NCBI GenBank assembly: GCA_049315665.1
Contig: JBMOJS010000001.1
Coordinates: forward strand, 1 to 53,168
Direction: 5' to 3'
DNA length: 53,168 bases
Source: Pseudobdellovibrionaceae bacterium
Lineage (GTDB): Bacteria > Bdellovibrionota > Bdellovibrionia > Bdellovibrionales > Bdellovibrionaceae
Below, piece by piece: positions 11,382-37,519 of this stretch. The notes beneath the pieces are model-generated. The model searched no databases, was not told the DNA's origin, and worked only from the letters and a program-made list of their open reading frames with translations. How positions within the stretch are numbered: the stretch's first letter is position 1; every line of letters starts with the position of its first letter. The translations under genes were made by a program, and so were the position numbers.

Positions 11382-11457
11382 GATCCGCTAGCTCAGCTGG
11401 TAGAGCACTTCACTTTTAATGAAGGGGTCGATGGTTCGAATCCATCGCGGATCACCA
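11382..11457 (+). tRNA. tRNA-Lys (anticodon UUU)
   Basis: Cloverleaf readable by eye. Acceptor gatccgc/gcggatc, anticodon loop cuUUUaa, T-arm ggttcgaatcc, encoded CCA. Confidence 0.93.
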
Positions 11458-11468
11458 ATTTTCTAGTT

Positions 11469-11544
11469 GTTCCCATCGTCTAGTGGCCTAGGACACCTCC
11501 CTTTCACGGAGGATACAGGGGTTCGAATCCCCTTGGGAACGCCA
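11469..11544 (+). tRNA. tRNA-Glu (anticodon UUC)
   Basis: Acceptor gttccca/tgggaac, anticodon loop cuUUCac, T-arm ggggttcgaatcccc, encoded CCA. Close to the canonical bacterial tRNA-Glu. Confidence 0.93.
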
Positions 11545-23639: not shown

Positions 23640-23671
23640 TTTCCCTCCAAGATTTATTTATTACGCCCAAT

Positions 23672-24616
23672 TTAAGAATCGCTCTGGACAGGCTTTTCTT
23701 GTGGGGCTTGCAATCGTTTTGAAAACTGATTTTTTACAATTCCTGGAGCGGTCTTCGCGCCTTTATAGGTTTTTTTCGTTCCTTGCCAAGCTTTGCTCGC
23801 TCCCCATCCATAGGCTTTTTTTGTTCCTTTGGATGCGAGTCCTGCTAAGGCCCCAGGACTTGCCAGTCCGGCTGACAATCCAATGGCAGAAAGGCCAGCC
23901 GTTTGACTTGCAACGTTTGAAAGAGCTCCAGATATTAGATTTCGAACAACAATGGGTGTGAGAAGAATTGAAAATGCCAGCATTAATGTCAAAGCCAAAA
24001 GCGTAATGAAGTTTTGCCCCTTGGCTTCAAAATTATGTAAAGCCGTGCTCCATAGTAGTGTGCCTAGAACGGACCACACAATTTTCCAGGCAGCAATTTC
24101 AAAAAGTGTTCGGAATAATCCCCCGGTCATTGCTGCTGTTTGAGGCAAAATATAAAATGCGATCATGATGGGTGAAAAAATATAAAGAAGAACCAGGCAG
24201 TAAACAATAGCCGCATCAAAAAAGAAAACCGTGAAATACAGAATAAAATAAGCCAGGATCGCTACCACCGAAAGCAGGGTGTCGCCAAGTGAGGTCCACG
24301 ACCATGAGTGTTCCTTGAATGTCGCGCCTGCGGTTTTAAGGACTGCCTTATAGTTGTTGATGCTACCAAGGTGATCAGAGACTGCATCCGCGACTGCGGC
24401 AATCCAATTTGATATCTGAGGATATGCAATCAGAAGTATTGCCGCAATGAGTGCTCTACCAACTAACTGTTGAAAGGCCGGAACGCCACCAATGGGCATT
24501 TTAAAATATTCGATCAATACACCAATCACTAGCAGAAGAACAGCTAGCGCATAGAATATCGACACGAAAAATGTATGAATCTCTTTTGCCTGTGATGAAA
24601 TCCAAGAAATATCCAT
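23672..24616 (-). CDS. T4SS VirB6/TrbL-like polytopic membrane protein
   Basis: 314 aa with at least 6 hydrophobic helices and a G/A/K-rich C-terminal tail. Position fits trbL. Confidence 0.6.
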   Translation of the reverse strand: MDISWISSQAKEIHTFFVSIFYALAVLLLVIGVLIEYFKMPIGGVPAFQQLVGRALIAAILLIAYPQISNWIAAVADAVSDHLGSINNYKAVLKTAGATFKEHSWSWTSLGDTLLSVVAILAYFILYFTVFFFDAAIVYCLVLLYIFSPIMIAFYILPQTAAMTGGLFRTLFEIAAWKIVWSVLGTLLWSTALHNFEAKGQNFITLLALTLMLAFSILLTPIVVRNLISGALSNVASQTAGLSAIGLSAGLASPGALAGLASKGTKKAYGWGASKAWQGTKKTYKGAKTAPGIVKNQFSKRLQAPQEKPVQSDS

Positions 24617-24627
24617 AGCGTTAAGTC

Positions 24628-25314
24628 CTATTCAAATCGTGGGAGCTTAAATTGCGGTTCTGCTCCGGCAAGAGCCGCGTTAATATTGTCAGCACCAGCC
24701 ACCATTTGACGGGTTTGATCTTTATCCTTTCGATTTTGCAGCGCCAGGGTTTGTGCTTGAAGCTTGAGACCAGTCGCTTGGGTCCTAAGCATTTCGTTTT
24801 GAAGATTCAGCATAACCCCAATTGACTGGGCTGTGAGTTTCGCAGCCCCTCCGGGGGATACGGAATGACTCTGTGATTTGATCAGTTCACCAATTTCGTC
24901 AATCATCGTCGTGTATTTATAGATGGAGTTATTGAGCGCAACGGCTTCAGCGATACTCTGATCCGTATCTTTTTGAACCCTGGCATCATGTGAATCGACC
25001 ACAATGCCGTAAATGCTTTCAATCTTTAATAGGGCATCAGACGCTTTTTCCCAGTCCTTATAAAGTCCGGGATCAGTATTTGGACCAATTGTTCGAACAA
25101 GGTTCAGCGAGTCGTTGATACCGCGATTGATGTCGCGGACTAGGTTTAAGTTGTCGCGCCCGGTATTTAAAATACTTTGCAGTTGGGCTAGTTGCTCAAG
25201 GGCATTTATCAATATTTTAGCTAGAATAATATTTTCTTCCCCAAACATGCTGGCCCGAGATTGAGGAACACAAAACATTATCACTGTAGTTGCAATTGCT
25301 ATTGTCTTTTTCAT
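24628..25314 (-). CDS. T4SS TrbJ/VirB5-like secreted helical protein
   Basis: Signal peptide, ~200-aa helical/coiled region. Position between VirB4 and VirB6 analogues. No diagnostic motif. Confidence 0.4.
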   Translation of the reverse strand: MKKTIAIATTVIMFCVPQSRASMFGEENIILAKILINALEQLAQLQSILNTGRDNLNLVRDINRGINDSLNLVRTIGPNTDPGLYKDWEKASDALLKIESIYGIVVDSHDARVQKDTDQSIAEAVALNNSIYKYTTMIDEIGELIKSQSHSVSPGGAAKLTAQSIGVMLNLQNEMLRTQATGLKLQAQTLALQNRKDKDQTRQMVAGADNINAALAGAEPQFKLPRFE

Positions 25315-27728
25315 CGAACCACCTTTTGGGATGCAGATATCCCTTTTGGATATTGCTTTGACATCATTTTAAGAATTTCAAATTGTGGAAGACCAGGCTC
25401 ATTAAGTCGCAAGGTTTCAATAGCTGAAAGATCTCGAGGGTCCGTTGTTGCAATCCAAAGTTCAAGGGGTGTGGGTTCAATCACTGCGATGGTTCTACGT
25501 TCTGGTCCCGCAACAAGAAAAGCCTCAGAAAATTCACCTTTTTCTTGGTGAAGAGACTGAATAAGAGCCACTTCGTTATCGTTGAGCCCCAATGCTTCCT
25601 TCATTTTTGTGAAGTCACTCTGGTTTTGCATCAGAATCCATTTGACTGAACAGTTTGGAAGCAGGGCTGATGAAATTTTTGAATTTAAAAAATCCAAAAG
25701 ATCCTGACTGATGGCCGTGGCTGAGCAGTAGTATTTTCGAACCGTTCTAAAAATTTCCTCGATGAAAACAAGACCGGCTTCATCCTTAAGTAGCTTCCAG
25801 CACTCGTCAAAAACAATAAACTTCATTTTTGATCGGTCGCGCTGAACTTCTCGCCAAACCAGGTCTGTAATAATATATAAACAGACCCCTTGAAGATCAG
25901 GGTAACTTTCTAAACCCTTCAAATCAAAAGTGACTATGTCTCTTTGAAACTCTATCGTCGTTTTTTGATCTAGAAATTTTCCATAAGGAGTATTCCCGCA
26001 CCATGGGGCCAAGATTTTTCCATAAGTCTGAATTTCTTTTTCAGGGTGTTTTAATAAGATTTCGCGAAGGTCTGATATTCTTGGATTTTTCGAAGTTTGG
26101 TAGACTTTCTGAACAGCATCTTCAATTTCAGCTCTTGCCAGTTTTGGAATTCGGTCTGAGCCCTCTTCCTTGGTCATAAGTTCAACAAGACCCACAATAA
26201 ATTTAATCTTATGGGATGAGGGTTTTGTTTCACCAGGAACAAGATCAAATGGATTCACCGATAGTTGATCGTCGACTCCAAGCTCAACGTATTGTCCGGA
26301 TAGGTTCTCTGTCAGTTTTCGATATGATCCACCAATGTCGATAAAAAATACCTTTGGATTTTCTTTGAGCATTTGTAGTAGCAACAAATTCGTCATGAAT
26401 GACTTTCCTGACCCTGACCCACCGCTAATTAATTGATTGGCGTTAGAGAGCGAGCTGTCGAAAATGTTCAAAGCCGTTAGACTTCCCATTCTAGATTTTA
26501 GCAAAATACTGGGTGTTTCGTGCCCGGGCCAAGGACCATATAGCGGAATCAAGTCACAAAGATTTGATGTTTTGATCCGCCTTGAACGTTCTTTTGACCT
26601 AGCGTTGGGAAGTGAAACTTGCGAAAAAATATCAAATGCTGCCAAGGTTTCAGTCATAGCTTCAGCACCGCCAAGTTCCCTGAATTTTGCAAGAGTCATG
26701 TCCACTTGATTTTCTAGATCGCTTTCCGATTCACTTTGTAGTAGCACCGTGATTGAGACATGAAATACTTTTTGACCTTGGGCGATCATTTGTTCAAGTA
26801 AGACTTCAAGATCCTGAAGCTTCGCATTGCTCTCGATGTCTGAAACACCCGTGTGTTTTCCTACTACCATGGAAAAGGCAATTCGCCTTTGAATTTGCAG
26901 ACTTTCGATTTCTTTTGTTTGATCCGGCACATGAATGGTAGCGAGCAGTCTTGATTTAAATGGAAGCTCACGAAGTTTTGCTGCCATCGATGCAAAAGTT
27001 TGATCTGGAAGTGCTTTAAGGGACAACACTCGAAAGTGTGTTGCCCCAATGACAAATCCGCTAAGATTGATTCCTACATCGGAAAACAAAATACTCTGTC
27101 TGACCTCTTCAGGATCATAGGAACTAAAAGGAATTCGTCGGGATGGATTCCACTGCATATACAACAGTTCAGCGATGTCGTTCGCAGCCATTGATTGCGC
27201 TTTAACACCTAAGGCACTCAGTCCTTGAATAATGTTTTCCTTCAAACGCAAAGTGATTTCTATTTCATGGGCAAGTTGTTTCTCTGAAGTCTCTTGAAAT
27301 AATTTTTCCCTTGAAAATAGCGTTGGTTTTGAAAGTAAATTTTGTGAAAGTGATTTTCTAACAACGACTTTTAATCGGTGGGTTGGAATCTGCCCCTCAT
27401 CGTCCGAAGCGCGAAGTAAGGCCACTCTTTCATCACAGAGAGACTTAGCTAATTCATTGTTTGCGTTCGCTGCGAGCTTTTGATGGCAGGTGATAATTTT
27501 TTCATTTCCTGGTACAATATCCTGTATAAATTGAATGTCAATTTTTGAAGGCAAACTGTTTAGGAACTGAGCTACGTTTTCTGAAAAACTATTGATACGT
27601 TCATCACTCCAAGTGCTGACGTCCACTGGAACGCAATTCAATAAGAACCCTAGAGACCCGTCAGAATAAATGATTAAGTCCTTTTCGAAACCCCAAATTT
27701 GCAAGTTATCGGCTAAAGCATAAGTCAT
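25311..27728 (-). CDS. virB4: T4SS VirB4/TrbE ATPase
   Basis: 805 aa. Walker A GGSGSGKSF, Walker B FIVFDECWKLL, and C-terminal ..ATAISQDL... Confidence 0.9.
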   Translation of the reverse strand: MTYALADNLQIWGFEKDLIIYSDGSLGFLLNCVPVDVSTWSDERINSFSENVAQFLNSLPSKIDIQFIQDIVPGNEKIITCHQKLAANANNELAKSLCDERVALLRASDDEGQIPTHRLKVVVRKSLSQNLLSKPTLFSREKLFQETSEKQLAHEIEITLRLKENIIQGLSALGVKAQSMAANDIAELLYMQWNPSRRIPFSSYDPEEVRQSILFSDVGINLSGFVIGATHFRVLSLKALPDQTFASMAAKLRELPFKSRLLATIHVPDQTKEIESLQIQRRIAFSMVVGKHTGVSDIESNAKLQDLEVLLEQMIAQGQKVFHVSITVLLQSESESDLENQVDMTLAKFRELGGAEAMTETLAAFDIFSQVSLPNARSKERSRRIKTSNLCDLIPLYGPWPGHETPSILLKSRMGSLTALNIFDSSLSNANQLISGGSGSGKSFMTNLLLLQMLKENPKVFFIDIGGSYRKLTENLSGQYVELGVDDQLSVNPFDLVPGETKPSSHKIKFIVGLVELMTKEEGSDRIPKLARAEIEDAVQKVYQTSKNPRISDLREILLKHPEKEIQTYGKILAPWCGNTPYGKFLDQKTTIEFQRDIVTFDLKGLESYPDLQGVCLYIITDLVWREVQRDRSKMKFIVFDECWKLLKDEAGLVFIEEIFRTVRKYYCSATAISQDLLDFLNSKISSALLPNCSVKWILMQNQSDFTKMKEALGLNDNEVALIQSLHQEKGEFSEAFLVAGPERRTIAVIEPTPLELWIATTDPRDLSAIETLRLNEPGLPQFEILKMMSKQYPKGISASQKVVR

Positions 27729-28045
27729 CAGAAATTTCCTTTAAGTTTTGGGGGTACGGCTGTGTTTGTTGAGTCTTGAAAAGCTGAGAGATATTTTGGC
27801 TGCGCATAAAACTTCCCCAGATGAACAAGATAATTTTCAGGTTTGCCGCGCTTTCCGATTCTTAAAACAATAGCAAAAGCCGCAACTGGTCCCCATACCA
27901 ATGCAAGTTTGTAGTTGGTCTGACCAAAACTAAAATTTAAAATTGAAAGCAAAAGAAAAATTGCAAGCACATCAGGAACTTCGAATCCCATGATCAGAAG
28001 TTTTTTTTCCAGATTTTGACTTGTGGGCTCTGAACGCAAGGCCAA
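27728..28045 (-). CDS. T4SS VirB3/TrbD-like small membrane protein
   Basis: 105 aa with two hydrophobic segments. ATGA overlap with the virB4 start. Confidence 0.45.
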   Translation of the reverse strand: MALRSEPTSQNLEKKLLIMGFEVPDVLAIFLLLSILNFSFGQTNYKLALVWGPVAAFAIVLRIGKRGKPENYLVHLGKFYAQPKYLSAFQDSTNTAVPPKLKGNF

Positions 28046-28098
28046 ATTGTAAACTCCTTGAAAAGATAAAGGGGCTCTTGAGATTGCGCAAACGATCG

Positions 28099-28389
28099 TT
28101 AATTAACGATGCCGCGAATGAAAGTCATAATGCTGGGAGCACCAAAGCCGATGATCATTCCAATTATTGCGAGCCACAGATGAGATCTTGCGCCGGGATT
28201 GCCAGTAAAAAATGAAAAGGCCGCAAACACAAGACCTAGAACTGCGCACAGGGGTAAAATCGTATTGATAAGCTTAGATTGAATGGCCCCAAGGGTTGAC
28301 TCGACACTGCAATATCCTAGGACAGGAACCAGTAAAACCGACAACGCAATAATAAAAATAAAAGCTGAATTTGACAACTTCATAAGCAC
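28099..28389 (-). CDS. T4SS pilin, VirB2/TrbC-like
   Basis: 96 aa. Long signal/leader followed by two hydrophobic helices (LPLCAVLGLVFAAFSFF...WLAIIGMIIGFGAP), the classic pilin layout. Confidence 0.55.
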   Translation of the reverse strand: MLMKLSNSAFIFIIALSVLLVPVLGYCSVESTLGAIQSKLINTILPLCAVLGLVFAAFSFFTGNPGARSHLWLAIIGMIIGFGAPSIMTFIRGIVN

Positions 28390-28500
28390 TTCCTTTTTTA
28401 AAAGTTAATTTTTGAGAGGCTTGATGTTGCTTAAAAAGATGCTCTGAATTGAAAAGTTTTGAAGTAGAGTTTGCATCAGTGATAATGTACCTAAGATAAA

Positions 28501-28530
28501 CCAGATCGTTTTTTATGATCAACGACCTGG
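28501..28530 (-). terminator. hairpin (possible attenuator/terminator) between the unknown-gene block and the pilin gene
   Basis: On the minus strand: ccaggtcgtt-N10-aacgatctgg, a 10-bp stem with one G-U pair, followed only by ttt. Confidence 0.3.
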
Positions 28531-28555
28531 CTGTTTAGAAGATATTTTACAAAAT

Positions 28556-29128
28556 TTATCTTTCCCACTTATCTATAACTTCAATTTCGTCAATAGTAAC
28601 AGTTTTGCTTTTTTGATGATTTTTTACATGAAACAATGTTGTAAGTCTTGAGTTATAATCGTTATTAAAACTTAGATAACAGTGACCTTTGTGAACTTTC
28701 GCAGTTGTTGCGGGTGATAGTTTTAAAGGGGCCGCTTCAGAATACGCTAACCATGATACTGGTAATTTTACTCGCTCGTCGGCATGTGTAGACTTTATAT
28801 CTGAACAGCTTTTTTTGCCTAGATCATAAATAACACTGCTATCACCAATCACAAGATTTACTCTGAAATAGTCTTCAAAATCTTCGCCGGCCTCAAATAA
28901 AATATCCGGTTTATTTTTGGTTAATTTCACATCTTGACTCAGAAAACGAAAACTGTAGCTGGCGGAAACATAGTCCCCACCTGTGAATCTTGAAATGAGT
29001 GTTATTTCATTGCCAGGCTCCGATCTCGTAGCGCAGTTTTGAATATTTTCCGAATCTACGGCAAATCCGCGATTGGAAAGCAAAGAAATGGCTATAGCCA
29101 CTAAACTCTTAAATTTTAAACTTTTCAT
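28556..29128 (-). CDS. secreted hypothetical protein
   Basis: ATG at 29128 behind aaggag. Signal MKSLKFKSLVAIAISLLSNRGFA. No family recognised. Confidence 0.5.
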   Translation of the reverse strand: MKSLKFKSLVAIAISLLSNRGFAVDSENIQNCATRSEPGNEITLISRFTGGDYVSASYSFRFLSQDVKLTKNKPDILFEAGEDFEDYFRVNLVIGDSSVIYDLGKKSCSDIKSTHADERVKLPVSWLAYSEAAPLKLSPATTAKVHKGHCYLSFNNDYNSRLTTLFHVKNHQKSKTVTIDEIEVIDKWER

Positions 29129-29196
29129 AACATGATCTCCTTCTTTTTGGTTGTTGTGAATGTGACTTTTAAAATTGGACTCGTAATTCAATAAAT

Positions 29197-29526
29197 TCAT
29201 TTTTCTGGTGGTAGTGGAAGTCCTGCCAGTTGAATTGCGACTTTGCATTCTTTGTCGCTCCAACCCCATTGGGGAAGTGGATTTGTTACAACTTTTTCCA
29301 GTTGGTCATAGGTTAAGTGCGGGTGAATTAACATCCGCGGCAGTTTTTTATTTTCTAGCCATGAATTAATAGTTTGTAAGTATTGTAAATTTTTATCGTC
29401 AGTAGTTCCCGTATAGGCAATTGTATCAATTGCTACTCGAAACTGAACCAATCCGACTAAAATTGCAGTATCGCGCAGTTCACATCGATACAAAACTGTA
29501 ATAGGGGCTTGGGTTTTAATTTTCAT
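29197..29526 (-). CDS. hypothetical protein
   Basis: 109 aa. Its start abuts the stop of the upstream gene (29526/29527). Confidence 0.45.
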   Translation of the reverse strand: MKIKTQAPITVLYRCELRDTAILVGLVQFRVAIDTIAYTGTTDDKNLQYLQTINSWLENKKLPRMLIHPHLTYDQLEKVVTNPLPQWGWSDKECKVAIQLAGLPLPPEK

Positions 29527-29925
29527 TTAAGCCACCACTCCACCATCGACGCCAAGCAAGCTGTCGACCGTAACTTTATCTGGAAAAAGGCTCATGAAAA
29601 CCCGCTGACGTGGAAACGTGAACTGAATTTCAAGGTGTTTTTTAAGATCGCGAGATACGAACCCAAATCCAACAGGCCTGCGAAATATCGGATCAGAATC
29701 ATTTCCAAGTTTTTTAGCAAAAAGAGTAAAATTGCCATCCTCACTTCGATTTGAAGTGAGGTAAAAAACTTCCCTTGGAAAAGCCCACATCTTCACTATG
29801 TAATAGAGCTTCGCAGGGCCTTCGACTCCATAAGCTTCTCCGGCTTGAAGTTCATGACAGATAACTGAGCCTTTGCGGTAGCCCGTATAGATATGAAATC
29901 GACCCTTGATGTTTGAATTTTCCAT
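29527..29925 (-). CDS. hypothetical protein
   Basis: 132 aa. No family recognised. Confidence 0.45.
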   Translation of the reverse strand: MENSNIKGRFHIYTGYRKGSVICHELQAGEAYGVEGPAKLYYIVKMWAFPREVFYLTSNRSEDGNFTLFAKKLGNDSDPIFRRPVGFGFVSRDLKKHLEIQFTFPRQRVFMSLFPDKVTVDSLLGVDGGVVA

Positions 29926-29937
29926 TTTCCCCCCGGG

Positions 29938-30309
29938 TTATTTAAAATTAGAGTATATTCCGCTTCGCATCTGCAGCTCACGGTTCTTTTCTTTCGCTTC
30001 ATTAAAGCTCTGTTCAATTCTTCTCGCATTTTGAATGTCTTTTTCAAGCCCATCAATCATTTCAGCGATCAGGCTTTTCAGTTTTTCCCAAGTGTGAAGC
30101 AAGTGGGTTTTTTGACTCAAAGTTTTTGCTTTTGCAGTCATCGACTTTTCAATTGTTTGAAAATTCGATACAAGAACTCGAAAATCTTCGACGGGTCGCT
30201 TATTTTCAGGAATTGATTCTAGACTGACTGCCTTTGTCATGTGTTCGTTTTGTTCAATATCAGCTAACAGAGAATCCAACGTTGGCATTTTTAATACTTT
30301 TGAATTCAT
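29938..30309 (-). CDS. hypothetical coiled-coil protein
   Basis: 123 aa, helical K/E/Q-rich. Confidence 0.45.
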   Translation of the reverse strand: MNSKVLKMPTLDSLLADIEQNEHMTKAVSLESIPENKRPVEDFRVLVSNFQTIEKSMTAKAKTLSQKTHLLHTWEKLKSLIAEMIDGLEKDIQNARRIEQSFNEAKEKNRELQMRSGIYSNFK

Positions 30310-30312
30310 AAA

Positions 30313-30633
30313 TTAGGCTCCCTTTTTTGCTTCTGTTGATTGGTCGTCAGAATCAGCCGCTGACTTTTTCGAGATGAGCATTTTACATTGGCTCCGAAGC
30401 TGTGTGGGTTTTGGTATGAAAGTTTCTTTTGCGGCTTGATTCAAATCATCCATTCCCCCACGGGATACGTCCCAGGCCAATGAGTCCCAGTCGCACGATG
30501 AACACAAAACATCTGGAATAAAATGAATCAGATCGCAATCCCCACATTTTGGACACTTCTTAAAATAATCAACTGGCTTAGTTCGCTTTTCCGCCTTCTC
30601 AAAAATGTCTACAGTTCGTAATTCCACTTTCAT
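30313..30633 (-). CDS. zinc-ribbon hypothetical protein, first gene behind the sigma54 promoter
   Basis: ATG at 30633 behind gggggtg. CPKCGDC...CSSCDW. Confidence 0.5.
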   Translation of the reverse strand: MKVELRTVDIFEKAEKRTKPVDYFKKCPKCGDCDLIHFIPDVLCSSCDWDSLAWDVSRGGMDDLNQAAKETFIPKPTQLRSQCKMLISKKSAADSDDQSTEAKKGA

Positions 30634-30690
30634 AACATCACCCCCAGAGTCAGTTGTTGATATAAAAAATTGCTTTATATCTATTGCTAG

Positions 30691-30706
30691 GGCAACCATC
30701 GTGCCA
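30691..30706 (-). promoter_or_regulatory. sigma54 (-24/-12) promoter
   Basis: The minus strand reads TGGCACgatggTTGCc, an exact GG-N10-GC spacing matching 15 of 16 positions of TGGCAC-N5-TTGCW. It lies ~58 nt upstream of the ATG at 30633, and a sigma54 activator gene is adjacent and divergent. Confidence 0.7.
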
Positions 30707-30792: not shown

Positions 30793-30864
30793 ATGAGTTC
30801 GAAGTTCGAAACTACGAACCAGATGAGTTCGATTTTATAGCTATATAGATTTTATATTACGAAC
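30793..30864. promoter_or_regulatory. cluster of GTTCGAA / ACGAAC repeats (candidate activator binding sites)
   Basis: atgagttcga occurs twice (30793-30802 and 30823-30832), plus agttcgaa (30803-10), tacgaac (30813-19) and ttacgaac (30857-64). The cluster is 90-170 bp upstream of the sigma54 promoter. Confidence 0.35.
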
Positions 30865-30968
30865 TAAAAAGTTTGCTTTCAAACATCAGCTCAGTTAAAT
30901 ATTTTTATCACTAGGGTGGGTAGCAGACACTTTTATAAGCCCACCGCGAAACACAATAGAGGGTTAGG

Positions 30969-32507
30969 TTGGAAGAATTATCAATGACAAACACAGTTTC
31001 AATTCTGGTTATCGACGATAGCAAAGCGGATCGCTTAGCCAACATTATTGAGTGCAGAAGGATCTTTAAAAATATTCCTGATGTTGAATTTCACATCGAA
31101 GAATCGGCGACTTTGGAAAATGCATTTCAGAAGGCATCAGAGAGTACGTTTCACATTATTCTTTTGGATAAAGACCTTGGAGTTGATTCAGAAGGTAAAC
31201 GTATTTCTGGAATTGATAATATTCAAACACTTAAAGCCCTTCAGCCCCATGCACAAATATTTATGGTCACAGCTGACGAGAGGTATGAGGAAATTGTAGC
31301 TGCAATGAAGCTTGGTGCCTACGACTATTTTTTAAAGAGTTCAAATCCCGTAAAAGTTGAATACCGTTCTGTCATGCTAGAGCGCGCCTTCGAACGATCG
31401 GTTGAAGACCTTAAAGCTACGATGACAAGATCCACTAAGACAGGACTGTATTCTGAGTTTGTCAGCCAAGCGCCAGTTATGAAAATGCTCGATCAAAAAA
31501 TCAAGGCCATTGCTGAGTCATCACGGCCAGTTTTAATTCTTGGTGCTACAGGCCTTGGCAAAGGTGCCACTGCACGCAGAATCAGTCAGTTTCGCGCGAA
31601 CTTTCTAAAGCAAACCTCAAGACACTTTGTAAATATTAATATTGGAGCCATGTCAGACACCCTTGCTCAAAGCGAACTTTTTGGGCAGGACGCCTATTCA
31701 TATACAGGATCAGGTTCAAAAATGAAACCCGGTCTACTTGATGTCGCAAAAGGCGGCGACATCTTTCTTGATGAAGTTGGCGATGCGTCTGCCGAAATGC
31801 AATCTAAGCTTTTAAAAGTTATTGAAGAAAAGCAATACCTCCGCGTTGGCGGCAGACAGCCCATTCAAACCAACGCTCGGTTTATTTTTGCCACGAATAA
31901 AAATATGCGCGAGCTGGTGCGAAGTGGAAAGTTTCGCGAAGACTTATATATGCGCATGCAAGCATTTGAAATTGAAATCCCGGCTCTTGAGGAACGAAAA
32001 GAGGACCTTCCGCAAATTATTGAAGCTTGCCTACGAAATGCCCTGACCGAGGTAAAACATAAGCAAATCTCTATTAGTGATTTCCCTGAAGATCTGATGC
32101 GCTACTTGATGCGTGATAATATCCCTGGCAATATTCGGGGAATAGAAAATGACATTACAAAGTTAGTTTCTTTCATTCCGGTGGACTCACTTGGTAGGCC
32201 GATTCTGAAAGAGTGGAAAAACATTCTTGGTGGAAATACGCCTTTCAGAAAATCGCGTTCAAAAATGAGCCTTGATGATTTGCTATCGGCTGATACAGAA
32301 TTGGTTGGCTCTTCGTTTCCTGGCTATAAAAAAGCCCAAGAGATTTTTGAGAAAAAAATGATCGAAGAAGTTTTAGAGAAGACTGGGAATATGGTAACGG
32401 CAGCAAAGCAACTTAAAATTGCGAAGTCGACTTTAAGTGTAAAAATGAGACACCTCAATATCAAGACTCCAAAGGAAGTTAGGTACCATGAATCAAAAGC
32501 AACTTAA
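30969..32507 (+). CDS. sigma54-dependent response regulator (REC + AAA+ activator + Fis-type HTH)
   Basis: REC (ILVIDDS...ILLDKDLG...MVTAD), AAA+ (LGATGLGKG, ELFG, IFLDEVGD, FREDLYMRM), C-terminal HTH (AAKQLKIAKSTLSVKMRHL). Start is TTG at 30969 or ATG at 30984. Confidence 0.88.
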   Translation: MEELSMTNTVSILVIDDSKADRLANIIECRRIFKNIPDVEFHIEESATLENAFQKASESTFHIILLDKDLGVDSEGKRISGIDNIQTLKALQPHAQIFMVTADERYEEIVAAMKLGAYDYFLKSSNPVKVEYRSVMLERAFERSVEDLKATMTRSTKTGLYSEFVSQAPVMKMLDQKIKAIAESSRPVLILGATGLGKGATARRISQFRANFLKQTSRHFVNINIGAMSDTLAQSELFGQDAYSYTGSGSKMKPGLLDVAKGGDIFLDEVGDASAEMQSKLLKVIEEKQYLRVGGRQPIQTNARFIFATNKNMRELVRSGKFREDLYMRMQAFEIEIPALEERKEDLPQIIEACLRNALTEVKHKQISISDFPEDLMRYLMRDNIPGNIRGIENDITKLVSFIPVDSLGRPILKEWKNILGGNTPFRKSRSKMSLDDLLSADTELVGSSFPGYKKAQEIFEKKMIEEVLEKTGNMVTAAKQLKIAKSTLSVKMRHLNIKTPKEVRYHESKAT

Positions 32508-32736
32508 AAACTTCATCTTGAAGCTCAACCATGATTTGGCTGGGCAGCGGCGGTGCTTAGATTTGGTGAATGTACTTTTACATGAGGGATCTGCAAGCTT
32601 AGACGATGCAAAGAGATTGTTAGTTGAAACGATTGTGCAATTTGATTTAGCTCAAAAGACTATTTCAAGTGTCGAAATCGGGTCTTTTGAAGAAACAAAA
32701 CCAAAGAGAGTAATCTCGCAAAATAAGGAGGCCTAA
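32488..32736 (+). CDS. small helical hypothetical protein (possible Hpt-like phosphotransfer protein)
   Basis: 82 aa. aggaag lies 9 nt upstream. Overlaps the regulator gene by 20 nt. Contains NHDLAGQ, reminiscent of the Hpt HxxKG motif. Confidence 0.4.
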   Translation: MNQKQLKNFILKLNHDLAGQRRCLDLVNVLLHEGSASLDDAKRLLVETIVQFDLAQKTISSVEIGSFEETKPKRVISQNKEA

Positions 32737-32960
32737 TGGAAATTACGTCAACAGCATTGGTAAGTCTTGCTTGCCTATTATCGAACGGTCCAGCCGATTC
32801 AAAGAATGCGCAAGATTTTATAAAAAATTTGAATCAAGAACAAGTTGTTGTGATTCGACAGATTGTTCATAGCGGCGCATGTTTACCAAAAGCATTCGAA
32901 AACAAGATTCAGTCTGGATTTAGTAGAATAGAGAATAACGCTCCAACGACTGACCTTTGA
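32736..32960 (+). CDS. small hypothetical protein
   Basis: 74 aa. Strong SD aaggagg 4 nt upstream. TAATG stop/start overlap with the preceding ORF. Confidence 0.45.
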   Translation: MEITSTALVSLACLLSNGPADSKNAQDFIKNLNQEQVVVIRQIVHSGACLPKAFENKIQSGFSRIENNAPTTDL

Positions 32961-32967
32961 GTTTTGC

Positions 32968-34467
32968 ATGGCACCTAAAAAGATATATACAGGAGCAGCC
33001 CTTCTGGGGCTGCTAACATTGGGGGTTTTCATTTTCTTAAAGGAAGGAAGCATGAAATCAAAGCAGATTGATGTTGTAAGGACATCATTTCGAAAAATAG
33101 AACAGTTTCCCGACCCGACAGAAATTAATACTTCTGGAAAGTGGTATTTACTCAATCACATTTCAAGTCCACTTATTGAGTATAGCCATAAAACGTCATC
33201 ATTTAAGCCTTTGATAGCAAGTACGTGGGAAATCAACGATTCGATTTATACTTTTCACTTGAATCCATTGGCAAAGTTTAGCGATGGTTCAATGATAAAA
33301 CCTTCTGACGTTGGCCAATCCATTAAAAGAATTTTAGTCAAAAAGAAATCGACCCATTTTCCACTTTGGAATCATGTTAAAGGCTGCGATCAATTAAATA
33401 ACATGAATCAGAATTGTGATGGCTTAAGCTGGGACGATGATAAAAACATAGTCACTGTGAAGTTAAAAGGAAAAAGTGATTCGTTTTTATTGCAGATTTC
33501 TTCACCGGAAAGTGGGATTTGGGCTGCGCTTGATATTGATTCAGAATGCAACCTTGCACCCACGAAGTACAGCGGCCCATATAGTCTAGAAGGTTTAAAG
33601 GTCGATACCAATAAAGAGTTCATTTTAAATAGAAACTCAAATTCCATTTTGCAGACTGAGTTTCCAAGCTCACCAAATAAAATTGTTGTAAAATCAATGG
33701 AGAGAAGTGAAATTGAAAAGGCCATAGTTGATGGCAACGCTGATATTTTTATTGGCGATTTCATACCGTACAATGATTTTGACTGGGAACAAATGAAGGT
33801 TGGCATTCACTACACGACACCATCATCGATCATTTATTTTTTCGGTCTTAATTCTGAGAAAAAAATTGGCCAAGATCTTTTGGCTAGCTTAGCAACAGTT
33901 CCCGAGAAACGGCTTTTGCGGGCTGACACCTTTTTACCTTTTGCGCCCGAAGTTGCTTTGAACCAAACTGATTATGCAGAAGCATTGCCACTAAAATCAT
34001 CTCGAATACTAAAAGTGGCAGCACCTGGGTTTTATTTTAAAGATCAAGCCCTTGAGTTTCTTAAAAGTGCTGCACAGAAAATTGGAATTGATCTTGAGGT
34101 AACAAAGATTGAAAGGGCTGAATATTTTGAACTAGTAACATCAAAAGAAGATTTTAAAAGTAAATATGACTTTCTGCTTGGCAGTTATGTTGCGTCTGAG
34201 CGCTATCCAGCGGTTCAACTCAGGTTTTTAACCGGGGAAAGACAATCACCTGTAAATTTGTCCGACGTTGAGCAGCCTGATCAAGACCCAGTTAAAATTA
34301 AGCGACTGAAGGATTATCAAAAGTGGCTTTTGAAGTCTCAAACTGTTGTACCTATTTATTTTATGAGAAGCCACATTGTATCTGCTCCATATATTGATGT
34401 TGGTGATCAACCGATCACCGACGCTGATATTCAACTTTGGAGACTAACAAAAAAGGATGCTCAATGA
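32968..34467 (+). CDS. membrane-anchored solute-binding protein, family 5 (peptide/nickel type), orphan
   Basis: N-terminal TM (GAALLGLLTLGVFIF). PLIASTWEINDSIYTFHLNPLAKFSDGSMIKPSDVGQSIKRIL matches the SBP_bac_5 N-lobe signature. No permease or ATPase nearby. Confidence 0.65.
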   Translation: MAPKKIYTGAALLGLLTLGVFIFLKEGSMKSKQIDVVRTSFRKIEQFPDPTEINTSGKWYLLNHISSPLIEYSHKTSSFKPLIASTWEINDSIYTFHLNPLAKFSDGSMIKPSDVGQSIKRILVKKKSTHFPLWNHVKGCDQLNNMNQNCDGLSWDDDKNIVTVKLKGKSDSFLLQISSPESGIWAALDIDSECNLAPTKYSGPYSLEGLKVDTNKEFILNRNSNSILQTEFPSSPNKIVVKSMERSEIEKAIVDGNADIFIGDFIPYNDFDWEQMKVGIHYTTPSSIIYFFGLNSEKKIGQDLLASLATVPEKRLLRADTFLPFAPEVALNQTDYAEALPLKSSRILKVAAPGFYFKDQALEFLKSAAQKIGIDLEVTKIERAEYFELVTSKEDFKSKYDFLLGSYVASERYPAVQLRFLTGERQSPVNLSDVEQPDQDPVKIKRLKDYQKWLLKSQTVVPIYFMRSHIVSAPYIDVGDQPITDADIQLWRLTKKDAQ

Positions 34468-35543
34468 ATTTGAGTGGCTGTCAGATCTTTAATTTGGATA
34501 GTACTTTTGACGACTCGATCGCCGTAGCCAATGAATCTGATTGCAGCAATCTTCTTTTAGATTGGATCGTCAATAATTCGCTTTTAAAATCTGAAATTTT
34601 TGAGAGTGGTCTTGAAATTTCAAATCAGCGATTTTTCCGCTTTTCTATTGCCGCTACGGATCTTGATGGCAACCAGTATCATGGCTTTGGCAGATCAAAA
34701 GATCGCTTGAAGGCTGCGTCCATCGCAGCTGGAGAAATCATCGAGCGATATGTAGCAAAAAAAGTTCTAAAATCTGCTAAGCCCTTTTTAGTAAAACACC
34801 ATGTTTGTGTTCAGGATGCGGAAATCTCAGTCACTGAGTCAGGTCATGAGGTGCCACTGCCGTCGTCGGGATTTCACTCCAGCAATGGATGGGCTGTTCA
34901 CTTTTCTCTAAAAAAAGCTGTTGAGAACTCTACTCTTGAAGCTTTGGAGCGGCATACACTTTTGTATTCATATCTACATAGTGGTTGGAATGGATTTAAG
35001 AGAGACAGCCCAGTTCCATTTGGTAATCACGTGCTCACGCCATATGTGTCGCGTTTTAATTTTGGTGGTTTTGGCGCCGGAATTGTTACAACACAGGGAA
35101 GAGAGTTTCCTGGGTGCACATTTGGATACCTTTGCGATGATGTGGCCACTATCAACGGGTCTCAAAAGTGGTTGAATGCTTTTTTTGAAAGTTACGGCCA
35201 GTGGGAGTCGCTGTCTTTAAACAATGTCCAAAATCAGAATGAAAATTTGCTATCGCAATATCAGAAGTACTTTTTAACAACTTCCCAGCAGAGCGAGGTC
35301 AGGGATCTAATTATAGCTCCGAGTAAGAATAGTGCAAAAATTAAATCAAACATCTTGATGTTCGATTTGAAGCAGGCGTTGGGGCTTCCGTTTCCATTTT
35401 ACGCGGCCTACACATTTGGTGGAGATCTTATCCCACTGTTTTTTCGACAAAAGCTATCTATACAAGAAACGGTATTGCTACAACAAACTTTGAAATACTG
35501 GAGTCTTCCAACAAGTCTTCCGGAGTACCACCCAGTTTTATGA
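34464..35543 (+). CDS. YcaO-like family protein (standalone)
   Basis: ATGA overlap with the SBP stop. GFGRSKDRLKAASIAAGEIIERY and SSNGWAVHFSLKKAVENSTLEALERHTLL match the two conserved YcaO ATP/Mg-binding segments. Confidence 0.65.
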   Translation: MNLSGCQIFNLDSTFDDSIAVANESDCSNLLLDWIVNNSLLKSEIFESGLEISNQRFFRFSIAATDLDGNQYHGFGRSKDRLKAASIAAGEIIERYVAKKVLKSAKPFLVKHHVCVQDAEISVTESGHEVPLPSSGFHSSNGWAVHFSLKKAVENSTLEALERHTLLYSYLHSGWNGFKRDSPVPFGNHVLTPYVSRFNFGGFGAGIVTTQGREFPGCTFGYLCDDVATINGSQKWLNAFFESYGQWESLSLNNVQNQNENLLSQYQKYFLTTSQQSEVRDLIIAPSKNSAKIKSNILMFDLKQALGLPFPFYAAYTFGGDLIPLFFRQKLSIQETVLLQQTLKYWSLPTSLPEYHPVL

Positions 35544-37222
35544 AAAACTTCAATTTAATCAGCAGATTTATAGTTGGTAGTATGATCCTGGGCCTAGTGG
35601 TGCCGATGATCTATCACATTGGGCTCAATGTGGCCCGGCACAACCACTTTAACAAGCTCACAGAGCAGGTGTGCAAGGCAATTGAACCTCGAATACAGAT
35701 TGGTGCGCATCGTGAAGCTTTGGAATATCTGAAGAGTGCCATAGTCAATCAAGGAATTGATGCAGAGCCTTTGATTGAGTTCAAAGATCACGGCAATCTT
35801 GTGACGCCGCCCATTTTGAATGCTGGATCAAAATTCCGCGAGAGTTGTGAGTTTCAAGGCATCACTGGTGTTGAAGCCAGCGTTTTTTACAACCATGTAC
35901 CGGTGCTTAATATTTTGTATCTCTATTTATATATTATATCTGTTCCGACTTTGTTCTTAGTCTTTGTTTGGGCTAGGCGTGGAGTTATGCAATTGCAGAG
36001 AAAAGTTGCTGATCTGATTGAAGCTCAAATGAAACAACTTTTGGGAATCGGCGCAGCTTCAGAGGCGCCAAAGACGAGCCTATTCTACAAAATTTTTGAT
36101 CTTGAGATACCGCTATTAACATATCTGAAAAGACATATTGAAAATCTAGAATCGGACTTACAAAGCTACTCAAAAAAAATAGCCGATCAGCAAAAGCGCG
36201 AAGTTCTTATGGATGTTGCCGCTCAAATGGCCCATGATATAGTAACGCCAATTTCAAATTTGCAGATGATCCTACAGAACGATGATGCGAATAAAAATCA
36301 GAATTTAATTCTGCTGGAGCTTGGACAAATTAAAAATCTTTCTGAAAAGTTGCTTCGTGAATATAGAGGCGAGTCTTCAATGGCTGAACAAAAACGTGAA
36401 ACGATTGATGTCGTCGAAAGCATTCACTCAGCCCTAGAAAGTGCGAAGGTGTTCGCCAAAAGTATGAGACCTGTCGTATTTAACTTTGATTGCAAAAAGA
36501 ATGAAAAAGTTGAACTCGTAGGTGATCGAAGCGATTTTATTGCCGCACTTTCAAATATCTTAAGAAATTCAGTGGAGGCCTTAGAAAAAGACAATGGTGT
36601 CATCACTGTAAGGCTCCTCAAGGATTTTCAAAGTTTGAAAGTCCATGTCTCTGACAATGGGTGCGGAATTAAAGAAGAAAATTTATCGAAAATATTTGAA
36701 AACAAATTCTCGGTTGGAAAGAAGAATGGCACTGGCTTAGGTCTCTTTCAGGTAAAGTCCATGATTGAAAGTATGAAGGGCGCAATTCATGTCGAATCAA
36801 AAATTGGTATTGGCACAACTATAGGGCTTACTTGGCCTCTTTGCTCGGAATCATTTACGAATGGTTTAAACCAAAAAACTATCGCAACCCAACGGCCCGA
36901 TTTAATTTTGATTGATGATACAAACTCAAATCATGTCAGATGGGATATCGAAGCAAGGCGTGCTCAGAAGAAATTGGCTTCGTTTCGATCTTTGGACGAC
37001 TTTAATTCTGCATCTCAAAACATCGATAGGGATACCCCCATTTTTGTCGATTACACTTTTGACAATGGACCGCACACAGGCAAGGAAATTGCTGAGCGCA
37101 TAGTTTCAGCGGGTTTTGAAAATGTGCATATTGCGACCGCCCTCCCGGTTGATCGTGTCGATAGGCCCACTGGAATCAAATCTGTTCGAGGTAAAGATTT
37201 TCCATTGGCAGTGCTTCTGTAA
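35540..37222 (+). CDS. hybrid sensor histidine kinase (2 TM + HisKA + HATPase + C-terminal REC)
   Basis: ATGA overlap with YcaO. H-box AAQMAHDIVTPISNL, N-box LSNILRNSVEA, G-boxes DNGCGI and GTGLGL. C-terminal LILIDD...IFVDY...IATA receiver. Confidence 0.85.
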   Translation: MKNFNLISRFIVGSMILGLVVPMIYHIGLNVARHNHFNKLTEQVCKAIEPRIQIGAHREALEYLKSAIVNQGIDAEPLIEFKDHGNLVTPPILNAGSKFRESCEFQGITGVEASVFYNHVPVLNILYLYLYIISVPTLFLVFVWARRGVMQLQRKVADLIEAQMKQLLGIGAASEAPKTSLFYKIFDLEIPLLTYLKRHIENLESDLQSYSKKIADQQKREVLMDVAAQMAHDIVTPISNLQMILQNDDANKNQNLILLELGQIKNLSEKLLREYRGESSMAEQKRETIDVVESIHSALESAKVFAKSMRPVVFNFDCKKNEKVELVGDRSDFIAALSNILRNSVEALEKDNGVITVRLLKDFQSLKVHVSDNGCGIKEENLSKIFENKFSVGKKNGTGLGLFQVKSMIESMKGAIHVESKIGIGTTIGLTWPLCSESFTNGLNQKTIATQRPDLILIDDTNSNHVRWDIEARRAQKKLASFRSLDDFNSASQNIDRDTPIFVDYTFDNGPHTGKEIAERIVSAGFENVHIATALPVDRVDRPTGIKSVRGKDFPLAVLL

Positions 37223-37324: not shown

Positions 37325-37519
37325 ATGGAGGCAAGTCTTATGGAAAACATTGTCTTTCGATCCTTTGAGGTTGTATTTAAGACTGTCGGAATTTTATTAC
37401 TGACGGGTGCAATTGTAGCGGCCGTGACTGACATCCAAAAGCGTGCATTTGAAAGTAAGCGAACGGGCCTGACCAGTATGTTAAAAGTGAATGAACAATT
37501 GGTGGGTAAATCGCAGTGA
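37325..37519 (+). CDS. small membrane protein (tentative)
   Basis: 64-aa ORF behind aggag with one hydrophobic helix (VGILLLTGAIVAAV). Confidence 0.3.
   Translation: MEASLMENIVFRSFEVVFKTVGILLLTGAIVAAVTDIQKRAFESKRTGLTSMLKVNEQLVGKSQ

Follow-up and report, generated by a model that had tools for sequence, protein, structure and literature searches.

What is a gene for a YcaO-like enzyme doing between the genes for a peptide-type binding protein and a histidine kinase? To our knowledge, YcaO proteins have so far been met in pathways for antibiotics and toxins of the ribosomally made and post-translationally modified peptide (RiPP) class and in two cases of protein modification. We addressed this question in a 53,168-nt stretch of DNA from a Pseudobdellovibrionaceae bacterium (contig JBMOJS010000001.1, positions 1 to 53,168), referred to here as the window. 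It carries a six-gene cassette encoding a sigma-54 enhancer-binding response regulator (EBP), two small open reading frames (ORFs) named orfA and orfB, a membrane-anchored family-5 solute-binding protein (SBP), the YcaO-like protein, and a membrane histidine kinase (HK). Coordinates throughout are those of the window; L numbers denote related contigs, and A numbers denote alignments. The cassette is very probably a conserved regulatory module aimed at the promoter of a type IV secretion system (T4SS) operon. We find it most likely that this module belongs to a family of Bdellovibrionales integrative elements that carry a T4SS and that it is a self-contained peptide signaling circuit.

A translationally coupled six-gene cassette

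The cassette comprises the following genes.

30969-32507, forward strand: EBP
32488-32736, forward strand: orfA, 82 aa
32736-32960, forward strand: orfB, 74 aa
32968-34467, forward strand: SBP, membrane-anchored, family 5
34464-35543, forward strand: YcaO-like protein, 359 aa
35540-37222, forward strand: HK, membrane histidine kinase

The gene order and all five junctions given in the original prediction were borne out exactly by the ORF coordinates. The EBP gene and orfA overlap by 20 nt (32488-32507), orfA and orfB are joined by a TAATG (32734-32738), and a 7-nt gap separates orfB from the SBP gene, which in turn overlaps the YcaO-like gene at an ATGA (34464-34467), as the latter does the HK gene (ATGA, 35540-35543). 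The longest ORF for the YcaO-like protein begins at a TTG at 34437; 33 homologs, mostly of 351-360 aa, align from the ATG at 34464. These junctions, together with an EBP/orfA overlap of 20 or 23 nt that recurs in related loci, support the translational coupling that had been proposed. Within the six-gene run, terminator and promoter signals did not rise above the expectation from shuffled sequence.

Conservation of the cassette in related loci

The complete order EBP-orfA-orfB-SBP-YcaO-HK, divergent from a T4SS operon, was found in the window and in L001, L002/L003, L005, L013, L014, and L015. In L017, the full cassette adjoins the conserved promoter and repeat array described below. Identity to the YcaO-like protein of the window ranges from 40 to 79% across these full-cassette loci (8, counting the window and L017). 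The shorter trio SBP-YcaO-HK is kept in L004, L006, L008, L010, L012, L021, L025, and L026; L025, among the most distant, has the SBP C terminus upstream and the same kinase family downstream. L007, L009, L011, and L016 are cut by contig ends and offer no exception to the order of the trio. Mining of gene neighborhoods, which had been suggested as a check on co-occurrence, revealed that in every locus with enough flank a YcaO gene of this clade lies between the SBP and HK genes, at YcaO identities of 25-79%. All six matches in reference genomes were metagenome-assembled genomes of the Bdellovibrionales type.

The six genes might be unrelated neighbors that happen to adjoin. Against this, all the independent contigs that we examined, whose YcaO identities span 25-79%, preserve the order, orientation, and overlaps of the genes, by which fortuitous adjacency is effectively refuted.

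The genes 3' of the kinase differ between loci. They encode resistance-nodulation-division (RND) efflux components in the window, a patatin and a CD-NTase (CBASS) in L002, an RND transporter and a metal ATPase in L014, and a glyoxalase-family protein in L015. Because these downstream genes vary, the cassette, and not the exporter, can be assigned to the element backbone, and the earlier suggestion that the RND exporter takes part in the circuit has to be given up in favor of variable cargo. Neither is the RND system supported as a peptide exporter, as it is not conserved across loci. It does recur in the window and L014, and L007 has a likely efflux-type pair, judged by its sequence, so that it may yet have such a role.

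The trio was also found away from T4SS genes in L004, L010, and L021. In L004 (6243-12819), orfA-orfB-SBP-YcaO-HK lies beside flagellar and housekeeping-type genes with no EBP and no T4SS, and the upstream ORF is hydrolase-like; this copy may be a remnant or a module with its regulator encoded elsewhere. T4SS genes are not seen in L006 and L012 either, two contigs with no more than ~0.6 kb of sequence upstream of the SBP gene.

A conserved sigma-54 promoter facing the T4SS operon

The region divergent from the cassette holds the features below.

30692-30706, reverse strand: sigma-54 (-24/-12) promoter, TGGCACGATGGTTGC, facing the T4SS operon
30797-30801, 30804-30808, 30815-30819, 30827-30831, and 30860-30864: five GTTCG/CGAAC half-sites, putative activator sites, in the block 30796-30865
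21858-30635, reverse strand: T4SS (mating-pair formation) operon, divergent from the cassette
30313-30635, reverse strand: first gene of the T4SS operon, Cys-rich (CPKCGDC...CSSC), ~106 aa
28099-28389, reverse strand: TrbC/VirB2 pilin (Pfam TrbC)
25311-27728, reverse strand: VirB4/TraC (Pfam TraC_F_IV/P-loop_TraG)
21858-22775, reverse strand: TrbI/VirB10 (Pfam TrbI)

The promoter that had been placed at 30691-30706 is real and lies at 30692-30706 on the reverse strand, where TGGCAC-N5-TTGC is the sole exact match in the window, with 0.15 expected by chance. At the equivalent position, the match is exact in L001, L002, L013, and L017, with one mismatch in L005 and L014 and two in L015, giving TGGCA[CT]-N5-TTGC as the form conserved across loci. 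The GTTCG array lies ~90-170 bp upstream of this promoter, between it and the EBP gene. A conserved block, AGTTCGnAGTTCGnAACTnCGAACT...AGTTCG...TTTATAAACATATAA...CGAACT, with an AT-rich box between the half-sites, is present in 7 loci (A10). Promoter and array together have the usual layout of an enhancer-binding protein target, and the EBP of the cassette is the sole sigma-54 activator found in the window. Phosphorylated EBP would thus be expected to bind the GTTCG repeats and activate the T4SS operon. The link between the cassette and this promoter, originally drawn from their proximity, is strengthened by the conservation of promoter and array across 8 loci.

The longest ORF of the first T4SS gene (30313-30699) overlaps the sigma-54 promoter. 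Its true start is probably the ATG at 30633-30635, which is preceded by GGGGGTGA. A small Cys-rich first gene of 96-106 aa is kept in L001, L005, L013, and L014.

A different purpose for the same genes would be the production of a RiPP antibiotic or toxin, in which case the cluster, with autoinducing two-component regulators like those of nisin and subtilin, would be cargo, and the T4SS operon would not be its target. A YcaO protein with a precursor-like small ORF is the minimal RiPP signature, two-component autoregulation of RiPP clusters is well known as a matter of general knowledge, and the trio does occur away from T4SS genes, as described above for L004, L010, and L021. On the other hand, the divergent position next to the promoter and array is fixed in 8 loci while the downstream cargo varies, and the only sigma-54 activator of the window adjoins its only exact sigma-54 promoter. 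Moreover, the cassette has no immunity, export, or leader-protease genes, and an antibiotic would be expected to have a larger core than 6 residues, of which one or two can be modified. The fixed position beside the sigma-54 promoter and the lack of immunity and export genes make this explanation less likely, and we regard it as improbable.

As a separate observation, exact TGGCAC-N5-TTGC sequences were also seen in L020, L023, and L021 (2584-2598, forward strand). L021 is distant and of higher GC content, and the sequence there is located ~270 nt upstream of an orfB-like ORF. In loci of the L021 type, the trio operon itself may be sigma-54-dependent.

The 359-aa protein has a YcaO fold

Assigning the 359-aa protein to the YcaO family by sequence search alone did not succeed. 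A phmmer search with the single protein against PDB sequences gave no match, and the family profile retrieved McbD at an E value of 0.024 and E. coli YcaO at 0.85 only. The score against Pfam YcaO (PF02624) was 18.4 bits, with a gathering score of 25.7, in a match spanning 32 residues; against NCBIfam TIGR03604, it was 21.7 versus a cut-off of 219. All 24 aligned family members matched Pfam YcaO weakly, the best at 1e-6.

The fold was settled by a predicted structure. We compared an AlphaFold2 (AF2) model, built on the 24-member alignment (pLDDT 88, pTM 0.90), with the PDB using Foldseek. The best match was Methanopyrus kandleri YcaO (PDB entry 6ci7; E 1.6e-8, probability 1.0, template modeling (TM) score 0.48), and further matches were E. 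coli YcaO (4q84-86, ~1e-4) and TruD (E 1.3e-3). Overall, the TM score to solved YcaO structures is ~0.48 at 10-14% identity. The model confirms a YcaO fold for the protein, at a distance from characterized members.

The sequence contains GFGRS(74)...E91xxE94R95, S139SNGW...E159xxE162R163H164, and a C-terminal PEYHPVL. In alignment A5, which takes in the most distant relatives (25-31% identity), Gly-76, Glu-91, Glu-94, Arg-95, Ser-140, Asn-141, Gly-142, Trp-143, and His-146 are invariant down to 25% identity, as are Glu-159, Glu-162, Arg-163, His-164, and the C-terminal Pro-357 and Leu-359. Local alignments with Pfam YcaO and McbD place residues of the protein on the acidic and Ser-Asn ATP/Mg2+ segments. 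We take the two ExxER segments and the Ser/Asn segment to be the Mg2+/ATP ligands, partly by analogy with the E. coli YcaO structure. A proline-rich PxPxP C terminus is needed for the activity of cyclodehydratases; the conserved LPEYHP[IV]L end seen here, with its invariant Pro-357 and Leu-359, is similar to this motif without being identical. Because the ExxER, SNGW, and C-terminal motifs are invariant at 25% identity, the alignment argues for a working enzyme, with ATP-dependent backbone activation as its predicted chemistry. The YcaO call of the original prediction is supported by the fold and the invariant motifs, though it remains sub-threshold in Pfam.

The low similarity to active YcaO proteins, the sub-threshold Pfam score, and the absence of partner enzymes would also be in agreement with a YcaO-like protein that serves at the kinase as a non-catalytic scaffold or nucleotide sensor, with orfB as an unrelated small regulator; some members of the YcaO family do function with no chemistry of their own. 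A scaffold, however, would not need the ExxER motifs, SNGW, and the C-terminal motif that are invariant to 25% identity, and we consider this explanation very unlikely.

The clade is compact and, by its sequences, stands apart from the large canonical groups of YcaO proteins. Among 5.8 billion proteins, a word-indexed search yielded 33 relatives, none of them named, and an exhaustive profile search of 1.84 billion cluster representatives (50% identity) yielded 216 at E <= 1e-3, including 104 at <= 1e-30. Apparently full-length members have ~310-375 aa.

The partners that accompany YcaO proteins in RiPP pathways were reported as missing in the original prediction, and our scans agree. Neither the 359-aa protein nor any of the window ORFs that were scanned contained an E1-like/Ocin-ThiF domain or a fused RiPP recognition element (RRE), and the window scans found no TfuA, dehydrogenase, or protease. 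An FMN dehydrogenase, leader protease, or exporter was neither present in the cassette nor conserved beside it across loci. The YcaO proteins of bottromycin pathways work without an E1-like partner.

orfB has the architecture of a peptide precursor

The product of orfB matched no Pfam or NCBIfam model. A profile search retrieved 51 family members of 68-100 aa, which share a conserved N-terminal part of ~55 aa followed by a variable linker and a C-terminal [SA]-P-T-[TS]-D-[LFY]. The N-terminal motifs of the family are M-x-[IL]-[TS]-[ST]-x-A-[LI]-[VI]-S-L-A-C-L-L-S, L-S-x-E-Q-V, and S-G-x-C-L-P-x-x-F; in the window, they read MEITSTALVSLACLLS... and SGACLPKAF, and the C-terminal core is APTTDL.

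The strict tail pattern xP[TS][TSE]Dx occurs in 43 of the 51 relatives, in one copy in 36, two copies in 6, and three copies in 1; one relative, P0067, has two strict copies and a degenerate one. Copies are exactly 12 residues apart, and the last is at the C terminus or no more than 3 residues from it. Position 4 of the tail takes Thr, Ser, and Cys (one variant being SPTCDL) as well as Glu and Gly; Thr, Ser, and Cys are the residues used by YcaO cyclodehydratases. The Thr/Ser that follows the proline is nearly invariant, making it a natural candidate nucleophile for cyclodehydration by the YcaO-like protein. In an AF2 model of modest confidence (pLDDT 65), orfB forms four short helices and a 12-residue unstructured tail. 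Two distant loci encode partial counterparts: in L006, a 42-aa ORF directly 5' of the SBP gene ends in APTTSF, and its remainder differs from orfB; the small ORF of L021 has an N-terminal helix and KLPASF in common with orfB and ends in QPSFNAGGR.

A leader followed by short cores at fixed spacing is found in multi-core RiPP precursors such as PatE of cyanobactins, for which the heterocyclase is a YcaO protein, and in pheromone precursors of the Phr type, in which the last five residues become the mature peptide. We suggest that orfB is a precursor with a leader and one or more Ser/Thr-bearing cores and, judged from its sequence, may be the YcaO substrate. The earlier idea that the 74-aa ORF is such a substrate gains support from the leader and repeated-core architecture; the pairing of enzyme and substrate was, and is, an inference.

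Known leader and signal types do not describe the N-terminal part. A Sec or lipoprotein signal peptide was rejected, as no member has a basic residue in the n-region, the sequence is a poor match to a lipobox, and L005 has another residue in place of the Cys. Double-glycine, Nif11, and NHLP leaders were rejected as well; there was no NCBIfam or Pfam match and no C39-peptidase transporter, and the LSxEQ...SG spacing does not fit the LSxxELxxIxGG consensus.

An orphan peptide-type SBP

The SBP matched Pfam SBP_bac_5 (PF00496) with an E value of 2.2e-19 (70.3 bits versus 32.4). It has an N-terminal hydrophobic membrane anchor and a conserved Cys (A6) and is the best-conserved protein of the cassette, with a mean column identity of 62% (A6). 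The nearest solved relatives of its profile are the peptide binders AapF, OppA3, DppE, OppA, PrgZ (E 1.5e-11), and YejA. PrgZ is the pheromone receptor of the conjugative plasmid pCF10. A hexapeptide is the right size for the pocket of a family-5 SBP. For the YejA type, import of a YcaO-made peptide, phazolicin, by YejABEF is described in PMC10128002.

No ABC permease or ATPase for the SBP was found in the window or in any related locus. With the domain above threshold and no ABC genes in the window, the description of an orphan, membrane-anchored family-5 SBP holds. Because a cognate permease and ATPase are lacking, the SBP appears to be of the sensor type rather than the transport type and is a candidate periplasmic co-receptor of the kinase.

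The C-terminal region of the SBP contains a conserved G-[DE]-Q-P-T-T-D-A-[DE]-x-Q-L-W (A6), similar to the orfB tail S-P-T-T-D-L.

34408-34425, forward strand: segment QPITDA of the SBP, residues 481-486

This likeness, which covers 4-5 residues and was found post hoc, could be due to chance, to a pseudo-ligand, or to a shared recognition motif.

The arrangement of these proteins can also be read as a switch inside the cell. The SBP and HK would sense a foreign ligand, such as wall peptides of prey or recipient, and the YcaO-like protein would modify an orfB adaptor or inhibitor, the HK, or the EBP. As a corollary, orfB would stay in the cell, with its tail cassettes as docking or modification sites. 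No conserved exporter or protease was found, and orfB has no classical signal peptide. The YcaO-like gene overlaps both the SBP and HK genes by ATGA in the window and most loci, a coupling that is common for subunits of one complex. Some YcaO enzymes act on proteins instead of secreted peptides, as in the thioamidation of McrA and in the case of E. coli YcaO and ribosomal protein S12, and the GxQPTTDA segment of the SBP resembles the orfB tail. Contrary to this reading, tandem cassettes with a 12-residue period ending at the C terminus are typical of multi-core precursors, the simplest view of a peptide-binding SBP encoded beside a peptide-like gene is that of a receptor and its ligand, and a periplasmic SBP and a cytoplasmic YcaO-like protein would form no direct complex. 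The intracellular switch is, in our view, unlikely; it stays a serious competitor because there is no exporter or protease, some small ORFs have no tail motif, and an RRE or E1-like partner is lacking.

Components of a putative phosphorelay

The HK consists of a first transmembrane helix, a periplasmic loop of ~90 aa, a second transmembrane helix, a dimerization and histidine phosphotransfer (DHp) domain with His-232, a HATPase_c domain with N and G boxes, and a putative, degenerate C-terminal receiver (REC) domain. His-232 is located in an invariant HD[IF]xxP H-box (A2), and the match to Pfam HATPase_c has an E value of 1.6e-20. HisKA is weak (0.012 in the window and ~1e-5 in the orthologs of L006 and L009), and Pfam called neither HisKA nor REC in the HK of the window.

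The REC assignment draws on several comparisons. Asp-459/Asp-460, Asp-504, Thr-533, and Lys-552 of the C-terminal segment are at CheY-like spacing (A8); the best PDB sequence match of the segment is the receiver 3kto, at a weak E value of 0.008; and hhalign aligned it to the REC domain of the EBP with an E value of 1.7e-4. Some HK orthologs have two REC-like domains, and the ortholog of L021 has two canonical Response_reg domains (E 1e-21). The original prediction of a hybrid HisKA-HATPase-REC kinase therefore stands for the HATPase domain and the H-box, while its REC is degenerate and uncalled by Pfam and is suggested by motif geometry, weak profile matches, and the L021 ortholog.

The periplasmic loop (residues ~26-115; within 35540-35950) has invariant Cys-45 and Cys-103 and a conserved QxGxxRE, even at 22% identity.

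The EBP contains Response_reg, Sigma54_activat (E 1e-47), and HTH_8 domains, all above the Pfam thresholds, with REC residues Asp-16/Asp-17/Asp-67/Thr-101/Lys-123, a Walker A motif GATGLGKG, and a Walker B motif DEVGD. Its partial matches in NCBIfam are NtrC and LuxO. The LuxO match (1e-54) and a partial match of the HK to LuxQ (4e-14) are both far below the equivalog cut-offs. Thus, in the profile searches that had been recommended, SBP_bac_5, Sigma54_activat, and HATPase_c were above threshold, and YcaO was below it.

A relay from a receiver-bearing kinase to a REC-containing activator calls attention to orfA, for which the original prediction had considered a histidine phosphotransfer (Hpt) role. 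That role did not hold: neither orfA nor 20 relatives had a match in Pfam, to Hpt (PF01627) or to any other model, and 66-82 aa is too short for a monomeric Hpt. NCBIfam likewise gave nothing for orfA. The 29 members of the orfA family, of 66-82 aa, are known solely from the context of the cassette. His-15 is invariant in LxHD[LV] among 20 aligned members, down to 14% identity (A13), and one subgroup reads HDLRGLLTP, near the H-box of kinases. The best PDB matches of the orfA profile, at weak E values of ~0.02, are the DHp domain of EnvZ (1joy, 5b1o, and 3zrw), with the His on the phospho-acceptor His, and orfA aligned to the DHp domain of the HK of its own cassette at an E value of 7e-4 (hhalign, probability 27%). 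orfA was present in 10 of 10 loci with a C-terminal REC on the HK and absent in 3 of 3 without one (L006, L010, and L012); L021 is the exception to this co-occurrence. In L006, where the HK is not hybrid, a REC-Sigma54_activat protein with a canonical GAFTGA is encoded directly 3' of it. Based on these sequence comparisons, whose statistics are weak, we suggest that orfA could be a stand-alone DHp-like phosphotransfer protein linking the REC of the HK to that of the EBP.

Proposed mechanism

Our model for the cassette is an agr/comQXPA-like circuit, wired in the manner of LuxPQ-U-O, that licenses conjugation; for this full peptide-signal mechanism, we see the case as evenly balanced. orfB would be a ribosomally made precursor in which an N-terminal leader is followed by one or more C-terminal [SA]-P-T-[TS]-D-[LFY] hexapeptides as the signal unit. 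With ATP, the stand-alone YcaO-like protein would modify the backbone of the core, and the Thr/Ser after the proline is the candidate for (methyl)oxazoline formation. Once released, the peptide would be bound in the periplasm by the membrane-anchored SBP, acting as co-receptor for the loop of the HK in the fashion of LuxP and LuxQ; the loop is probably a disulfide-stabilized docking surface for the SBP. The phosphoryl group would pass from His-232 of the HK to Asp-504 of its REC, then to His-15 of orfA, and finally to Asp-67 of the EBP. On the GTTCG repeats, the EBP would open the sigma-54 promoter, so that the T4SS and conjugation genes would be on only under the signaled condition. Observed in the sequences are the domain identities, the conserved gene order and coupling, the promoter with its repeat array, and the multi-core tails of the orfB family. 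The action of the YcaO-like protein on orfB, the binding of its product by the SBP, the direction and sign of the relay, and the cleavage and export of the peptide are all putative steps. The broader proposal from which the analysis started, a circuit of signal production and sensing that gates functions of the element, is supported.

Several results weigh against this model. The resemblance of the YcaO-like protein to characterized enzymes is low (TM ~0.48, 10-14% identity, below the Pfam cut-off), and, as an RRE or E1-like partner is not present, leader recognition would have to be intrinsic to it. The strict tail motif is absent in 8 of the 51 orfB relatives, and the small ORFs of L010, L012, and L021 have other endings. 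In the alignment, the orfB N terminus has no basic n-region, which makes Sec export doubtful; nor does a conserved protease or exporter accompany the cassette to account for release of the peptide. The statistics for orfA as a DHp (E 0.02 and 7e-4) and for the REC of the HK (0.008 and 1.7e-4) are weak. Finally, the GAFTGA loop of the EBP is replaced by YSYTGS (residues 242-247, 31692-31709). All EBPs linked to integrative conjugative elements (ICEs) have YS[YF]TGS in this position, and the EBP of the non-ICE locus L006 has the canonical GAFTGA.

A bolder form of the model, which we put forward tentatively, is that a previously unrecognized clade of small stand-alone YcaO proteins produces a quorum or pheromone signal, which would be the first to depend on YcaO. 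It would be a backbone-modified hexapeptide from a multi-core precursor, read directly by an orphan SBP and passed through a hybrid kinase and a DHp-only protein to a sigma-54 activator that licenses conjugation of an integrative element in predatory Bdellovibrionales. The YcaO reaction may also itself be a regulated step of the pathway, in which the backbone of one of its proteins is modified reversibly or in dependence on the signal.

The host element and its neighboring genes

By its gene content, the window looks like an ICE. The features outside the cassette and the T4SS operon are as follows.

11382-11544: tRNA-Lys(ttt)/tRNA-Glu(ttc)
11488-13101: large serine recombinase, 537 aa, whose ORF overlaps the tRNA-Glu gene
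16830-18197, reverse strand: N6/N4 DNA methylase, 455 aa, within the T4SS region
19717-21180, reverse strand: FtsK-like ATPase
37325-37519, forward strand: 64-aa ORF with one transmembrane helix (MEASLMENIVFRSFEVVFKTVGILLLTGAIVAAV...LTSMLKVNEQLVGK), ~100 nt 3' of the kinase gene
48792-50159: SIR2-domain gene, defense-type cargo
50242-52713, reverse strand: 823-aa ORF with no Pfam match, candidate relaxase or primase

The left end of the element probably lies where the tRNA genes adjoin the recombinase gene. A search of the window for a direct repeat of 14 nt or more matching the tRNA end was negative, and the right end was not located. No relaxase family was recognized among the window ORFs scanned, several of which had no match of any kind.

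Related elements carry defense cargo. The patatin and CD-NTase pair of the CBASS anti-phage type occupies the position of the RND genes at 13387-15248 in L002 and at 6999-8860 in L003. In searches of defense and phage families, the small ORFs, the SBP, and the YcaO-like protein had no match, and the EBP matched RtcR-type models via its AAA+ domain only.

The 64-aa membrane ORF may be a seventh member of the module. L002/L003, L005, and L007 have homologs of 59-71 aa at the equivalent site, and ORFs of 59 aa in L013 and L014 correspond to it in position. Searches of Pfam and of the defense and phage families gave no match for it. Elsewhere, a protein with GYF_2 and PilZ (c-di-GMP-binding) domains is encoded in L010 (7419-8180), 5' of the small ORF and the SBP gene.

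Comparison with known systems

In the literature library searched, we found no paper linking YcaO to signaling, quorum sensing, a two-component system or kinase, an SBP, or sigma-54, and the database relatives of the YcaO-like protein, orfB, and orfA are all unnamed. A YcaO clade of ~216 clusters that stands beside the same SBP and kinase in every locus examined would therefore represent new biology. As far as we know, control of conjugation by peptide pheromones has been a Gram-positive paradigm; if true, a Gram-negative counterpart that relies on a binding protein, a kinase, and sigma-54 would widen this picture. The system is small and testable, comprising a single enzyme, a candidate substrate of 74 aa, a single binding protein, and a single promoter. 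A defined hexapeptide core would offer a handle on leader recognition by a minimal YcaO protein without an RRE partner, and a DHp-only phosphotransfer candidate would be an unusual phosphorelay solution.

The original prediction went too far in its statement that a modifying enzyme built into a two-component module is without a described precedent. In agrBDCA of Staphylococcus and comQXPA of Bacillus, one operon encodes a precursor, a modifying enzyme, a membrane histidine kinase, and a response regulator, and the signal comes from the C-terminal or an internal part of the precursor. The cassette likewise combines a candidate precursor and modifying enzyme with a kinase and a regulator within one operon. 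It differs in that its enzyme is a YcaO-like protein and not AgrB or ComQ, sensing would go through a separate SBP, the relay would run His-Asp-His-Asp to a sigma-54 activator, the host lineage is Gram-negative and predatory, and the presumed output is the T4SS operon of a mobile element.

The proposed wiring resembles LuxP/LuxQ-LuxU-LuxO of Vibrio, which also joins a binding-protein co-receptor, a hybrid kinase, a small phosphotransfer protein, and a REC-AAA+-HTH activator. LuxP, however, belongs to another SBP family and binds AI-2, whereas the SBP of the cassette belongs to family 5; LuxU is a true four-helix-bundle Hpt, whereas orfA resembles a DHp hairpin; and the signal synthase LuxS is unlinked and unrelated to the YcaO-like protein. 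In ChvE-VirA-VirG of Agrobacterium, as proposed here, a binding protein in the periplasm acts with a kinase that bears a receiver to govern how a T4SS operon, there vir, is transcribed. There, ChvE is sugar-binding, VirG is an OmpR-type regulator acting at sigma-70 promoters, and the system has no signal-producing arm.

Element-encoded precursors are known from pCF10 (PrgZ/PrgQ/PrgX) and ICEBs1 (RapI-PhrI), in which the C-terminal 5-8 residues are the signal that gates the transfer genes, and pCF10, like the cassette, also encodes a family-5 SBP, PrgZ. Those peptides are unmodified, imported by Opp, and read by cytoplasmic receptors; the cassette has no permease, its SBP appears wired to a kinase, and it includes a YcaO-like protein. 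Cyanobactin pathways, with PatE and PatD/TruD, share with the cassette a YcaO protein and, on the proposed reading, a precursor with a conserved leader and short cores at a regular period. Unlike them, the cassette has no RRE/E1, protease, macrocyclase, or oxidase, its putative 6-residue cores have an invariant Thr but do not require Cys, its YcaO-like protein has only 359 aa and is 10-14% identical to solved YcaO proteins, and the genomic context is regulatory rather than biosynthetic.

Taken against these systems, the ingredients and the overall logic of the cassette are already known. Five features are new, namely the YcaO clade, the obligate association of this clade with an SBP-kinase sensor, the DHp-only relay candidate, the Gram-negative host lineage, and the ICE setting.

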